This document shows, in pieces, positions 22,390 through 53,732 of a stretch of DNA of 64,000 bases. The notes under the pieces were generated by a model. That model made no database searches. It saw nothing but the letters and a program-made list of their open reading frames with translations, and was not told the origin of the DNA. The stretch lies in the NCBI RefSeq assembly GCF_024298765.1, contig NZ_CP101210.1. The stretch is one strand, 5' to 3'. Position 1 is the stretch's first letter, and each line of letters begins with the position of its first letter. The stretch is from Escherichia coli. Lineage in GTDB: Bacteria > Pseudomonadota > Gammaproteobacteria > Enterobacterales > Enterobacteriaceae. The position numbers were made by a program, and so were the translations under genes.

Positions 22390-22752
22390 TGGTGGAGCTG
22401 GCGGGAGTTGAACCCGCGTCCGAAATTCCTACATCCTCGGTACTACATGCTTAGTCAGTCTTTACATTCGCTTGCCAGCTGCGGACGGACACGCCACTAA
22501 CAAACTAGCCTGATTAAGTTTTAACGCTTCAACCCCAGGCAGGGCTTCCACGCGATCTCTTTTGGGTTTGACCTCTCTTGATCCCCGTCCTAAGAGCGGA
22601 GGCTAGGGAGAGAGGGCTCTAAGCAGGTTATTAAGCTGCTAAAGCGTAGTTTTCGTCGTTTGCGACTATTTTTTGCGGCTTTTTACGAGGCCAACCGCCC
22701 CTCGGCATGCACCTTGGGTTTCGCAAATCCCGTCGAATCCAGAATCAGCCCC
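22390..22752 (-). ncRNA. ssrA: tmRNA (SsrA), 363 nt
   Basis: Reverse complement matches E. coli tmRNA from GGGGCUGAUUCUGGAUUCGACGGG to CCAGCUCCACCA; tag reading frame encodes ANDENYALAA. Confidence 0.95.
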
Positions 22753-40850: not shown

Positions 40851-41246
<396 letters not shown>

Positions 41247-41439
41247 TCAAAATGTGTGATGGAAATCTCATAATTTTGTCACTTTTTGTCAACGAATCTT
41301 TTTTGTGAGAAATCGCAGGAAGAGGTGTTTTTTTACTTGAGGAATATCTCAAAGCGAGCCATATTTGATGAGATCGATAGTGACTAAATCGCTTCAGTTT
41401 CACAACTAACAGAATAAAAAAACGGCAGCTCAAGGGCTG

Positions 41440-42866
41440 TAATGCCGATCAGTTAAGCAACTGACTGGCTCTTTTTCGGGGCTGTGGGGTATTTCCAGGG
41501 CCTCTCCTTTACCACTCTCGGGAAGGCCCTTTCCCTTCTTGTCGGTAATTTCACAAGTTGTCCCATACTTGCAAGATCGCGCATCAGCTCCGGTATACGT
41601 CCCGGTGAAGCGCCCTGCAATGTCATCAGCATTCTCATCACCATTCCGCATGATTCTGAGAAACTCAGTTGATTCGGCCAGTAACCTTTCAGATGTTCCG
41701 CCATTTTAATCATCTGATATCTCACCAGATTATAAGCCAGTAAGACACCCCACAGCTCTTGCTCCACAAGCTCCGGCTTTTTACTTCTCAGCGTCAGCCT
41801 GCTCAGTTGCATCGTCTGTTTTATCTCCCTGTATCCCAGTTCGATTTCCCAGCGATGACTGTACAGATCCGCCATTTCTCCTCCGGGGAAGCGCATGGCG
41901 TCCGTCATCGACGTCAGCAGATGGCAGACTTTTCCTTTGCGCGTCACGGTCAGCAGGCGGGCTGTCACTTCATTTCCCAGTCCCGGCCACTTTTTTCGTG
42001 CCTGCGGGCTGGTTTTCAGCTTCACCAGATGATCGCCTTTACCCAGTTTTCTGATCTCTTCATATTGCGCTCCCTTTCTGAGAGGTATCATCCAGTGGCG
42101 GTGTTCTCCCGCCAGGCTCCAGGCATTTAACAGTCCCAGTGAGTAATAACCTTTATCCATTAACGTCAGAGTGTTATCGCCGGTTTGTTCTATAAGTTGC
42201 TCAGCAAGCTCATTTTCGCTGTTCTTCATCGTGCCGAAGGCTGCAGCCGTCAGCAGATGGCTGGTCAGTTCCATCTGGCAGACCATTTTGACCTGCGGGT
42301 AGAGCGCCGGGTTCCCGTCATGTGTCTGGCGGGGGAAGGCTGCATCGTTCTCTGGTGTATCCGGTGTGCGCCAGAACACACCATCGATGGCCAGCAGGGT
42401 CAGGCCGCACCAGTGCGGATGCGGCGTGGCGTTATGCCAGAGCTGCGCTGTTTTCGTGAACACGCGGCGGACAGCCTCACTTCCCAGGCGCTGGCGGGCC
42501 TGAATAACGGCACTGGGGGGCAACGAAGGGGCGATTGCCCGGCAGCATGATGTCCAGGCGATTCACAATCTGGTGAAGAGGTTCTTTACGCTCAAGCGCC
42601 ATGCCAACAATACACCAGACCATCATTTCGAGGGGAAGACGGCGCTTGCGTAGCGTTACAGTACCTGATTCGGCAAGGCAACGAGAGATGAGTTCGGGGT
42701 CGAGGTAATCCCCCAGAGAAGTCAGTGGGTTACGCAGAGAATCGTAACGGGATACCAGATCAAGAGCCTGTCCAATGTGCATAAAAAAATCCGGAAACAA
42801 GTGAGCGTTTCCGGATTCTTACACAGCCACTGGATCGGTCAACTGATCCTTAACTGATCGGCATTA
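41440..42866 (-). mobile_element. IS4 insertion sequence (1427 bp) with perfect 18-bp terminal inverted repeats
   Basis: TAATGCCGATCAGTTAAG at 41440..41457 and its reverse complement at 42849..42866; flanked by direct repeat CAGCTCAAGGGCTG (41426..41439 and 42867..42880). Confidence 0.85.
41453..42800 (-). pseudogene. insG: IS4 transposase, interrupted by a frameshift near 42515..42520
   Basis: Two overlapping ORFs (42477..42800 and 41453..42523) together match IS4 transposase; a six-C run on the coding strand (six G at 42515..42520) puts the N-terminal 107 aa out of frame. Confidence 0.8.
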
Positions 42867-42903
42867 CAGCTCAAGGGCTGCCGTTTTGTGTTTCAGGTTT
42901 CTG

Positions 42904-43641
42904 TTATGTATTGCTGCTGTTTGCGGCGATGATTTTCGCTACTTTTTCAGCTTGCGCATTCAACTGCATCTGACGGTATGCATTTTCCATCAGCGGCAGC
43001 GCATCACGCGTAGCCTGGGTATCCGGGTAGTCGCGCAACATGCCTTCTACGCGGTTAACGACGGCAACCCATGCACCACGTTCTGTATAGTACTCGGCAA
43101 CGGAGTATTCATATTTCGCCAGACGATCTTTCAGGAATACCAGACGTTTGGTGGCATCGGTGGTGTACTGACTGTTCGGATAGCCGCGCACCAGTTTGGA
43201 AAAGTCACTAAACGCAGCTCGTGCATGTTGAGGATCGCGATCGCTACGGTCAACGCCAAAGAACCCTTGCAGCGCACTGTCATCCAGCGCCATATTGGTC
43301 AGGCCACGCATGTACATGACATAATCGATATTCGGATGGGTCGGGTTAAGGCGAATAAAACGATCGATGGCAGCCTGTGCTAACGGCAAATCGGCGTTTT
43401 TATAGTAGGCGTAGATGAGATCCAGCTGCACCTGCTGCGAATACGGACCAAACGGATAGCGATTATCTAACGCTTCCAGTTGCGTTATTGCCTGTCTCCA
43501 GTTACCGTCCTGCAGCTTTTGTTGTGCAGTCGCGTAAATTTCATTTGGCGGATTATCAGGTACTTCTTCCTTTGACCCCGAGCAACCCGCCAAAAACAGG
43601 CTTAGTGTGGCGGCTGCCACCAGATATTTCATGCGCGTCAT
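42904..43641 (-). CDS. bamD: Outer membrane assembly lipoprotein BamD
   Basis: 245 aa, lipobox LAGCS. Confidence 0.95.
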
Positions 43642-48629: not shown

Positions 48630-50171
<1,542 letters not shown>

Positions 50172-50239
50172 CCTTAAAGAAGCGTTCTTTGCAGTGCTCA
50201 CACAGATTGTCTGATGAAAATGAGCAGTAAAACCTCTAC

Positions 50240-50316
<77 letters not shown>

Positions 50317-50358
50317 AATTTGCACGGCAAATTTGAAGAGGTTTTAACTACATGTTAT

Positions 50359-50434
50359 GGGGCTATAGCTCAGCTGGGAGAGCGCCTGCTTTGCACGCAG
50401 GAGGTCTGCGGTTCGATCCCGCATAGCTCCACCA
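50359..50434 (+). tRNA. tRNA-Ala (anticodon TGC)
   Basis: GGGGCTATAGCTCAGCTGGGAGAGCGCCTGCTTTGCACGCAGGAGGTCTGCGGTTCGATCCCGCATAGCTCCACCA. Confidence 0.95.
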
Positions 50435-50608
50435 TCTCTGTAGTGATTAAATAAAAAATACTTCAGAGTGTACCTGCAAAGGTTCACTGCGAAGTTTTGC
50501 TCTTTAAAAATCTGGATCAAGCTGAAAATTGAAACACTGAACAACGAAAGTTGTTCGTGAGTCTCTCAAATTTTCGCAACTCTGAAGTGAAACATCTTCG
50601 GGTTGTGA

Positions 50609-53514
<2,906 letters not shown>

Positions 53515-53612
53515 ACAACGCCGAAGGTGTTTTGGCGGATAGAGAGAAGATTTTCAGCCTGATACAGATTAAATCGACAGGTCATAACGAGACGTGTTGA
53601 TAAAACAGAATT

Positions 53613-53732
53613 TGCCTGGCGGCCTTAGCGCGGTGGTCCCACCTGACCCCATGCCGAACTCAGAAGTGAAACGCCGTAGCGCCGATGGTAGTGTGGGGTC
53701 TCCCCATGCGAGAGTAGGGAACTGCCAGGCAT
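53613..53732 (+). rRNA. rrf: 5S ribosomal RNA
   Basis: TGCCTGGCGGCC...GGGAACTGCCAGGCAT, 120 nt. Confidence 0.95.

Follow-up and report, generated by a model that had tools for sequence, protein, structure and literature searches.

An IS4 copy with a frameshifted transposase gene in the bamD terminator hairpin, a recurrently used insertion site of Escherichia coli

In IS10 and IS50, fold-back inhibition is exerted through the extra 5' segment of transcripts that come from outside the element, which pairs with the transposase start region, and the element's own promoter starts transcription within this segment. The target of IS231A is GGG-N5-CCC flanked by A- and T-tracts, and the consensus target of IS4 is reportedly AAA-N20-TTT. 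Members of the IS4 subgroup have ends with the signature -AATR--------WTW---- and generate duplications of 10-13 bp, with a specificity in the target arms described as 'spectacular', and hence target-arm specificity of this subgroup is already published (PMC2266710). Another member of the IS4 family, ISRm22, is a REP-targeting insertion sequence (PMC1525189). For IS200, a preprint cites, as its reference 33, a terminator-like hairpin at the upstream end, which limits read-through into the transposase gene (bioRxiv 10.1101/2025.07.22.666184).

The locus analysed here lies in a 64-kb stretch of E. coli DNA (the window) and contains, between bamD and raiA, a copy of IS4, an insertion sequence long familiar from E. 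coli (Table 1). Global alignment with the IS4 of E. coli K-12 (1426 bp) revealed 1420/1426 matching positions, six substitutions and one inserted G, with a DNA identity of 99.5% over the full length of this reference copy, and nearly identical loci in other genomes (one substitution in 2021 bp) are annotated as an IS4-like element. The ends consist of TAATGCCGATCAGTTAAG and its reverse complement and form a perfect 18-bp inverted repeat, because GA replaces the AG of K-12 at positions 8-9. The subgroup signature is found in TAATGCCGATCAGTTAAG as AATG at positions 2-5 and TTA at positions 14-16, and the length of 1427 bp falls within the 1400-1650 bp of the IS4 subgroup (PMC2266710, Table 1). 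The element has the single ORF of an IS4-type DDE transposase, though this ORF is interrupted in the present copy. The NCBIfam model of the IS4 family transposase (NF033592) matches both ORF pieces, with 252 bits for the C-terminal and 38 bits for the N-terminal piece, and the repaired 442-aa protein contains the Pfam domains Nterm_IS4 at 18-109 (E = 7.6e-33) and DDE_Tnp_1 at 126-352 (E = 3.6e-32). At the string level only, YREIK is visible in the InsG translation; the Y-R-E-K motif of the subgroup follows the catalytic E and has the spacing Y(2)R(3)E(6)K. No second IS4 copy or fragment was found within the window. A chance origin of the arrangement described is impossible. An initial sequence-only reading of this DNA had noticed a 1427-bp element with perfect 18-bp terminal inverted repeats between bamD and raiA and had named it IS4; the anatomy and the identity hold, as does every other checked detail of that observation.

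Table 1. Features of the bamD-IS4-raiA region, in coordinates of the window
Feature	Position	Strand	Description and basis
raiA CDS	40851-41192	minus	113 aa; NCBIfam NF007654, 255.7 bits; 234-bp upstream region intact
Remaining 3' arm (CCG) and U7 tract of the original bamD terminator	41416-41425	minus	now downstream of the IS
Target-site duplication, raiA-side copy	41426-41439		CAGCTCAAGGGCTG; repeat search
IS4	41440-42866	minus	1427 bp; global alignment with NC_000913.3 4502090-4503515
Terminal inverted repeat, transposase-distal, raiA-facing	41440-41457		GA at positions 8-9, AG in K-12 IS4
Rest of insG, out of frame with the start	41453-42523	minus	DDE domain and C-terminus; stop codon 13 bp from the IS end
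Private substitution	42318		T in place of the G shared by all other IS4 copies compared; would give A155D once the frame is repaired
Truncated insG reading frame	42477-42782	minus	ATG 42782-42780, stop 42477-42479; translation
Six-G run (C6 on the sense strand), +1 frameshift	42515-42520		five G in intact IS4; alignment with K-12 IS4
Internal hairpin and U7, predicted terminator	42783-42821	minus	5' arm within 42821-42807, loop ~42806-42799, 3' arm 42798-42790, U7 42789-42783
Predicted transposase promoter	42815-42842	minus	TTGACC, 16-nt spacer with TG, AAGAAT; consensus scan
Terminal inverted repeat, transposase-proximal, bamD-facing	42849-42866		identical over 18 bp to 41440-41457 in reverse complement
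Target-site duplication, bamD-side copy	42867-42880		CAGCTCAAGGGCTG; hairpin loop with 4 bp of arm on either side
5' arm of the original bamD terminator	42877-42887	minus	AAAACGGCAGC on the minus strand; sequence and K-12 empty site
bamD CDS	42904-43641	minus	245 aa; stop codon 42904-42906; NCBIfam NF008119, 528.7 bits against a cut-off of 363

The genes on either side were identified as bamD and raiA, whose products both score above the NCBIfam equivalog cut-offs. Two copies of the target-site duplication flank the element, are 100% identical, lie 1441 bp apart and cannot be extended on either side. When the element and one repeat copy were removed in silico, a 270-bp bamD-raiA spacer was obtained, which is colinear with that of K-12 MG1655 and differs from it by four substitutions, none of them in the hairpin. 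The restored hairpin, AAAACGGCAGC-CCTTGA-GCTGCCGTTTT followed by a T-run, folds at -19.7 kcal/mol (z = -4.4). It was thus borne out, as the sequence-only reading had proposed from a 14-bp direct repeat, that the insertion split the intrinsic terminator of bamD. IS4 would have transposed into this hairpin and duplicated the loop together with four bp of each arm; the final four nucleotides of the 5' arm (CAGC, 42877-42880) are shared with the bamD-side copy, and this arm is now parted from the 3' arm. The target reads AAA-CGGCAGCCCTTGAGCTGCCG-TTT, with exactly 20 bases separating the A- and T-tracts, and the own target of K-12 IS4 fits AAA-N20-TTT as well. At 14 bp, the duplication is one base beyond the range quoted for the subgroup. 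This deviation reflects the loop length of the bamD target and does not put the assignment to IS4 in doubt, because the latter rests on the 99.5% DNA identity.

A structural feature overlooked by the sequence-only reading is a hairpin located about 45-85 nt inside the bamD-facing end, whose U7 abuts the insG start codon. Its predicted folding energy is -23.3 kcal/mol (z = -7.0), and it is built like an intrinsic terminator, with a core stem of 9-11 bp including five G-C pairs and followed by the U7. Among 33 divergent elements, 7 of the 14 predicted pairs exhibit compensatory changes. A generic terminator scan did not report the internal hairpin, which in our reading of the scan rule is due to a greedy stem absorbing the U-run. 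The hairpin is predicted to act on transcripts from outside as an intrinsic terminator and as a mask of the ribosome-binding site. The same segment contains the predicted transposase promoter, whose arrangement of the -35 TTGACC, a 16-nt spacer and the -10 is kept in 39/39 distinct IS4-subgroup elements and places the -10 in the basal part of the 5' arm; GATC sites flank and follow the -35. Taken alone, the promoter match does not exceed the chance level for this region (two sites found versus 2.5 expected), and conservation across elements is the sole argument for this predicted promoter. A transcript from the predicted start at ~42808 is calculated to be unstructured (-0.7 kcal/mol). Because the -10 element resides in the base of the 5' arm, the IS's own transcript should be unable to form the hairpin, and a bamD transcript entering IS4 would hold both arms and should terminate, or at least mask the transposase ribosome-binding site. 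From folding and conservation, we infer both terminator activity of the hairpin and promoter activity of the embedded site.

Since IS4 carries its own predicted terminator just inside the bamD-facing end, the insertion is probably harmless, with bamD and raiA undisturbed. The effect on the neighbours is expected to be small. The raiA gene retains its own 234-bp upstream region, and we infer that the insertion is neutral. The best explanation of the locus, and in our judgement a likely one, is a frameshifted IS4 inserted in a terminator at a hot spot, self-insulated by its internal hairpin and of small effect on its neighbours; it builds on direct observation of the identity, anatomy and frameshift of the element, its distribution among genomes, the pattern of its targets and the covariation in the hairpin. 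The alternative that survives best is the one put forward by the sequence-only reading, in which bamD transcription, no longer stopped by the split terminator, would continue across the IS into raiA and alter raiA expression. In its favour, the bamD terminator is destroyed, the bamD-side remnant together with the IS end folds only at -8.0 kcal/mol and lacks a U-run, and the transposase gene shares its strand, the minus strand, with bamD and raiA, as had been stated. The ATG of raiA is 234 bp past the raiA-side repeat copy and 247 bp past the IS end, in agreement with the earlier estimate of about 250 bp. On the raiA side, the remnant with its duplication copy forms only a 4-bp stem before U7 (-3.6 kcal/mol), and any transcript that came as far as this end of the IS would probably read on. 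A terminator rebuilt at this junction from the IS end, pairing CGG...CCG around a 5-nt bulge, was considered and rejected, since the minimum-energy fold prefers the IS-end hairpin and leaves the 4-bp stem. Read-through from bamD is, however, weakened by the conserved predicted hairpin and U7 at 42821-42783 (minus strand), which a bamD transcript would meet first, with its compensatory changes among the relatives. Moreover, 1.3 kb of untranslated pseudogene RNA would be exposed to Rho, the upstream region of raiA is kept and colinear with K-12, and the arrangement persists in hundreds of genomes in both orientations, as fits a near-neutral insertion. Taken together, altered raiA expression by this route is unlikely. 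Weak read-out toward raiA from transcripts made inside the IS is possible, because the raiA side offers only the 4-bp stem and no good terminator.

The insertion is not confined to a single strain. Among 5426 complete E. coli genomes, the bamD terminator site is occupied by IS4 in 406 (7.5%), with 336 having the same junction and orientation and 70 the same position in the opposite orientation. These counts are phylogenetically non-independent and demonstrate at least four distinguishable uses of the site rather than 406 separate ones. The cut positions are identical in all occupied sites. In both orientations the duplication comprises 14 bp with a 6-nt loop and 13 bp with a 5-nt loop, which defines at least four insertion classes by orientation and duplication length, and the empty site with the 5-nt loop is native in 944 genomes. 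In strain 2452, the IS at this site has 0 differences from K-12 IS4 and the flanks are K-12-like, with the same site empty in K-12. The bamD terminator is a natural IS4 hot spot, hit repeatedly in different E. coli lineages, and the present insertion is inherited within a clade. The possibility raised earlier, that the hairpin-plus-IS arrangement is the ancestral state, applies in part, namely to this clade; for the species, the empty site is ancestral. In mutation-accumulation lines, 8 new IS4 insertions are reported (Lee et al. 2016), and the literature search found no paper linking IS4 with bamD or raiA. A different account would trace every occupied site to one ancient insertion, disseminated by descent and recombination and lost from the other genomes, and the bamD terminator would then be no hot spot. 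At least one insertion is indeed old, as two degenerate copies, in 377323_2f and Z0117EC0005, have several substitutions in common and lack the same 336 internal bp, and homologous recombination could move the whole locus between lineages. Such an origin is nevertheless very improbable in view of the two orientations with identical cut positions, the tracking of the native loop variant by the 13- or 14-bp duplication in each orientation, the K-12-identical IS of strain 2452 beside flanks whose K-12 counterpart is empty, and the strong general preference for such hairpins of elements sharing the IS4 end.

Alignment with K-12 IS4 also substantiated the claim that the transposase frame is broken by an extra base in the six-G run. 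The truncated InsG comprises 101 aa, of which 88 are correct residues followed by 13 out-of-frame (break at codon 88/89), and it contains most of the Nterm_IS4 domain without the catalytic DDE domain. Taking out one G yields an uninterrupted 442-aa ORF. The present copy hence lacks the intact transposase frame of an autonomous insertion sequence. Around the private substitution, a 71-mer had no exact match among ~4900 IS4 places in the complete-genome collection. A 2021-bp query gave a single match place in most of the listed genomes, and thus this copy is their only IS4. In genome FCI1, which has the same haplotype, the run consists of five G and insG is intact, which may represent the ancestral condition, a back mutation or a difference in polishing. 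AMA1167 and KMi006, considered as candidates for five-G copies at the bamD locus, were discarded, since their IS4 copies occupy other loci, beside ISEcp1 and at the nanX site of K-12. It was conceivable from the outset that the sixth G is a homopolymer error of sequencing or assembly and the transposase really intact, as such errors are frequent in long-read assemblies and FCI1 has the five-G state. However, the six-G allele is present in 76 independent complete E. coli genome records from many laboratories and hosts, as against 1631 records with at least one five-G copy, and NCBI PGAP/RefSeq annotation of nearly identical genomes already marks the gene as a 'frameshifted' pseudogene. At least 59 of the 76 six-G copies are at the bamD-raiA locus, all on the one haplotype, and none of the 59 placed copies is at another locus. 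Random errors would not stay confined to one haplotype, and an artefact is therefore scarcely credible. Equally hard to credit is a tolerated or programmed frameshift, with ribosomal or transcriptional slippage on C6 yielding some full-length transposase and a mobile copy. Low-level slippage is possible on homopolymer runs, and in a few clade genomes IS4 is found at more than one place. Against this, the IS4 family encodes its transposases in one ORF and does not use frameshifting (PMC2266710), the common five-G allele has the uninterrupted ORF, most six-G genomes have only one IS4 copy and none of the 59 placed six-G copies lies elsewhere. In the reading preferred here, the copy of the present lineage would later have gained one G in its G5 run, truncating the transposase before the DDE catalytic domain, so that it would be an immobile pseudogene inherited vertically.

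The choice of the bamD hairpin agrees with a more general pattern. For elements that carry this 18-bp end, 110 distinct junctions from metagenomes were compared with a control. A palindromic tip was present in 69% (10% in the control), TTTT at nt 10-26 in 71% (9% in the control), and 69% lay no more than 200 nt from the stop codon of an ORF directed toward the IS (18% in the control). T occupies 80-88% of positions 16-19 in related-element junctions. IS4 of AMA1167 likewise resides in another terminator hairpin, with the 11-bp duplication CAGC-CTA-GCTG, and the duplications known here comprise 11 bp in AMA1167, 12 bp for K-12 IS4, and 13 and 14 bp at the bamD site. As a rule, IS4-like elements with this 18-bp end occupy hairpins that resemble terminators and lie just 3' of genes, and the bamD hairpin between its A-tract and T-tract would be the kind of target preferred by IS4 and its relatives. 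It is tentatively suggested, as an idea we favour less than its negation, that IS4 and the elements with its 18-bp end are 'terminator swappers', whose transposase recognizes hairpins and which replace the terminator they destroy by a module of their own. In such a scheme, the transposase may recognize intrinsic-terminator hairpins via their arms or shape, and the strand-transfer points would be anchored at a depth of four bp in either arm whatever the length of the loop, which would account for the 11-, 13- and 14-bp duplications at CAGC-loop-GCTG sites. The covarying hairpin of the element with its U-run and start codon, also housing the promoter, would then take the place of the destroyed terminator. 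If true, insertion 3' of genes would be nearly neutral, and the 7.5% occupancy of the terminator of an essential gene, bamD, in complete E. coli genomes would be explained. Neither the terminator reading nor the loop-dependent duplication nor the conserved promoter-in-hairpin module was found in the literature searched.

Taken by itself, the feature is commonplace, a dead IS4 whose pseudogene is annotated already, and IS4 is an element known from textbooks. The insertion and the six-G allele mark a clade with many avian-pathogenic O78:H4 isolates, and a recurrent IS4 site in the bamD-raiA spacer can mislead comparisons that take shared insertions as shared ancestry. Target choice, loop-tracking duplication and the promoter-in-terminator module bear on how insertion sequences find low-harm sites, and also on how they shield themselves from outside transcription.

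As compared to the IS4 of K-12 (insG, b4278; NC_000913.3 4502090-4503515), the present copy agrees in its 18-bp ends, in the single ORF for a 442-aa transposase with Nterm_IS4 and DDE_Tnp_1, and in its internal hairpin and promoter-like site. It differs in that the frame, intact in K-12, is destroyed by the extra G, in perfect rather than 16/18 inverted repeats, in three amino-acid substitutions, one of which is private to the window, and in a duplication of 14 bp instead of 12 bp at another chromosomal site. The arrangement of IS4 follows the fold-back logic of IS10 and IS50, as far as sequence and folding tell, and no paper describing fold-back-type protection for IS4 was found. Unlike in IS10 and IS50, the IS4 structure has the full anatomy of an intrinsic terminator, with a GC-rich stem, U7 and AUG, and is therefore predicted to stop transcription and not translation alone. 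With IS200, IS4 shares a terminator-like hairpin at the upstream end; IS200, however, belongs to the IS200/IS605 family with a single-strand HUH transposase and has no sequence relation to IS4, in which, furthermore, the promoter is embedded in the hairpin. Finally, IS231A, the REP-targeting ISRm22 and IS4 all prefer intergenic targets in which A/T tracts enclose a short GC-rich palindrome, but the targets of the IS4 type look like real intrinsic terminators just 3' of genes and not like REP repeats, and the duplication of IS4 varies with the loop, comprising 11, 13 or 14 bp at CAGC-loop-GCTG.

The element in the spacer between bamD and raiA is IS4 itself rather than a relative. In a global alignment with the 1426-bp IS4 of K-12 MG1655, it differs by six substitutions and one extra G, and two of these substitutions (positions 8-9 at the raiA-facing end) render the 18-bp terminal inverted repeat (TAATGCCGATCAGTTAAG) perfect, as compared to 16/18 in K-12 IS4. 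An exact 14-bp direct repeat, CAGCTCAAGGGCTG, is present on both sides. Of the features typical of IS4 that were examined, all were found except for an intact reading frame and a duplication within the quoted range, which is exceeded by one base because the target loop is of 6 nt. In silico excision of the element with one repeat copy leaves a spacer of 270 bp that aligns colinearly with the unoccupied K-12 site (four substitutions, none in the hairpin) and restores the bamD terminator, AAAACGGCAGC-CCTTGA-GCTGCCGTTTT followed by further T, 23 bp past the bamD stop codon with a fold of -19.7 kcal/mol (z = -4.4). Thus, the 1427-bp element, 18-bp repeats, 14-bp duplication, restorable terminator and extra base in the G run, as described in an earlier sequence-only reading, were correct in each detail checked.

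Coordinates of features in the window
Feature	Position	Strand	Remark
ssrA (tmRNA)	22390-22752	minus	tag ANDENYALAA
raiA	40851-41192	minus	passes NCBIfam equivalog cut-off
Direct repeat, raiA side	41426-41439
IS4 element	41440-42866		1427 bp, between raiA and bamD
Weaker terminator-like hairpin	41520-41535	plus	GGGAAGGCCCTTTCCC then TTCTTGT
Substitution	42318		T in window
G run	42515-42520		six G
insG ATG	42782-42780	minus
IS4-internal hairpin, U7 and insG AUG	42821-42780	minus	AAGAAUCCGGAAAC-loop-GUUUCCGGAUU
Promoter-like site	42842-42815	minus	TTGACC, 16 nt, AAGAAT; consensus scan
IS4 end with GATC sites	42815-42866
Direct repeat, bamD side	42867-42880
bamD	42904-43641	minus	passes NCBIfam equivalog cut-off
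rRNA operon	48630-53730		downstream of clpB
Spacer of rRNA operon	50240-50434		tRNA-Ile(GAT), tRNA-Ala(TGC)

The bamD target has the form AAA, 20 bases, TTT, like the site of IS4 in K-12, and a target consensus of this form was reportedly described for IS4 by Mayaux et al. in 1984. For the IS4 subgroup, duplications of 10-13 bp and a 'spectacular' specificity in the target arms are documented (De Palmenaer et al. 2008, PMC2266710). Scanning of metagenome contigs for the 18-base IS4 end provided at least 110 distinct junctions, contributed by a wide variety of elements; their flanks show two GC-rich stretches (positions 1-4 and 8-14) separated by an AT-rich one (5-7), with T in 80-88% at positions 16-19. 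A palindromic tip was observed in 69% of junctions vs 10% of positions drawn at random from these contigs. TTTT occurred at nt 10-26 in 71% vs 9% of controls, and an ORF (100 aa or longer) pointing at the element and ending within 200 nt in 66/96 junctions vs 18% of controls. Hence, IS4 and its relatives enter terminator-like hairpins just past genes, the bamD terminator being an example. Sites reconstructed from two ends are textbook hairpins with an A-tract on one side and a T-tract on the other, and the target of IS4 in strain AMA1167 is CCCCCAGC-CTA-GCTGGGGG-TTTT with an 11-bp duplication. The exact 18-base end CTTAACTGATCGGCATTA is common, among the matches listed (loci L018-L137), to many clearly distinct elements from soil, marine, sediment and gut metagenomes, which differ in the sequence immediately inside the repeat. 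A 155-bp element in a hairpin of contig Ga0157370_10018755 (L026, ~760-777), bounded by two IS4-type ends and a 12-bp duplication, has the appearance of a MITE, a miniature non-autonomous element derived from a member of the IS4 subgroup.

Insertion at the bamD terminator is recurrent. An 80-nt probe for the IS-bamD junction matched 336/5426 genomes and the opposite-orientation probe a further 70. In all 13 occupied loci retrieved the IS position is identical, the flanks are of differing haplotypes (as many as 55 differences per 1800 bp on the bamD side) and only a few positions distinguish the IS4 copies from one another. In strain 2452 the flanks are K-12-like and the IS shows no difference from K-12 IS4, while the site is empty in K-12; this copy hence represents a separate, recent insertion. 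Where the terminator loop is one base shorter, as in the native empty-site sequence of 944 genomes, ST131 strains among them, the duplication is of 13 bp rather than 14 in both orientations (ZH063, same; CE10, opposite). Orientation and duplication length define four distinguishable classes and therefore at least four insertions; the number probably exceeds four. Clearly old copies are present in 377323_2f (L010, 1465-2456) and Z0117EC0005 (L011, 1033-2313), whose degenerate IS4 share a 336-bp internal deletion; an IS200/IS605 transposase gene (tnpA) is nested inside one of the two, and in Z0117EC0005 one duplication copy is of 13 bp and the other of 14, the difference being a single G. In UMNF18 (L017, 1-395), a DNA-methyltransferase gene adjoins raiA at the usual pheL-pheA place, which points to a further insertion or an island in the raiA-pheL interval.

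The extra base converts C5 to C6 on the sense strand at codon 88/89 of insG, and the frame stops after 101 residues. With one base removed, insG encodes a 442-aa protein with three residues unlike K-12 InsG, comprising Pfam Nterm_IS4 (residues 18-109) and a DDE domain (126-352), so the 101-residue product lacks the catalytic domain. An assembly error, which the sequence-only reading had envisaged, is ruled out: a 76-nt probe over the G run gave exact six-G matches in 76 records among the complete genomes (five G, likewise exact, in 1631), and a 620-nt probe joining the run to the bamD junction placed six G at the bamD locus in 59 of the best 60 records. In one six-G genome, RefSeq labels insG 'frameshifted'. 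A 2021-bp probe matched a single place in most six-G genomes, which is therefore their sole IS4, and the frameshifted copy is stranded. FCI1 (L005, NZ_CM172811.1, 1474-2820) carries the flanks and IS haplotype of the six-G clade, yet its insG is intact, with five G; an ancestral state, a reversion or differing polishing could each account for this. At 42318 the window has T (A155D in repaired InsG) where all other IS4 copies have G, and the surrounding 71-mer found no exact match among the ~4900 places occupied by IS4 in a collection of 5426 complete E. coli genomes, from which the window's own genome is apparently absent; on the sequences compared, this substitution is private to the window.

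Elsewhere in the window, the rRNA operon has a tRNA-Ile/tRNA-Ala spacer. The K-12 operon at that position is presumably rrnG with a tRNA-Glu spacer and, if so, spacer type is strain-dependent here. Islands commonly integrate at the ssrA gene.

Inward from the bamD-facing end, IS4 contains a hairpin of -23.3 kcal/mol (z = -7.0) followed by U7 and the insG AUG. It was unreported in a generic terminator scan, which is attributed to a greedy stem consuming the U-run. Among metagenome element interiors, 30/52 score as terminator-like on the hairpin strand vs 9 on the other, and RNAalifold on 33 distinct sequences gave 14 pairs, of which seven retain pairing via two-sided changes in 7 to 16 sequences each. 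The promoter-like site, taken singly, matches no better than chance. However, in 39/39 distinct elements a -35 with at least 4/6 matches is accompanied by an xAxAAT -10 directly ahead of the 5' arm CCG, with a spacer of 16 nt in 37 and 17 nt in two. A transcript starting ~7 bases past the -10 (near 42808) does not contain the 5' arm and, at -0.7 kcal/mol, is unstructured. We infer that transcripts from outside would be terminated or translationally masked at the hairpin, with the IS4 element's own transcript exempt. In these elements GATC often follows the -35; Dam sites within the IS4 end and right behind the conserved -35 (TTGACCGATC) occur in the window and in many IS4-subgroup elements (loci L021-L135). 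This placement suggests methylation control of promoter or end, as in IS10 and IS50.

The insertion destroys the bamD terminator: the bamD-side remnant, IS end included, folds at only -8.0 kcal/mol without a U-run, and a mere 4-bp stem precedes U7 on the raiA side. This part of the sequence-only reading stands, while its suggested read-through into raiA is countered by the internal hairpin with U7 and is probably wrong. The bamD 3' end would instead move ~100 nt downstream, to that hairpin. The raiA gene retains 234 bp of upstream region, and weak transcription leaving IS4 toward raiA is possible. The weaker hairpin, facing inward from the transposase-distal end, could be relevant to the 70 opposite-orientation genomes.

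Hundreds of public genomes carry this insertion in their annotation, and hence the finding as first given was already known. Somewhat beyond the literature searched are the interpretation of the IS4 target as a terminator, the duplication length tracking the loop at a single site, and the covarying hairpin with its embedded conserved promoter. That these jointly constitute an undescribed 'terminator-swap' strategy is a tentative proposal, which we consider less likely than not. The protective logic proposed for the IS4 hairpin and promoter, which shuts out external transcripts and spares the element's own, is known from IS10 and IS50. The IS4-internal hairpin also agrees with a recent IS survey, which describes sequences resembling terminators both upstream of ISs and, for certain families, internally before the transposase gene (bioRxiv 10.1101/2025.07.22.666184).
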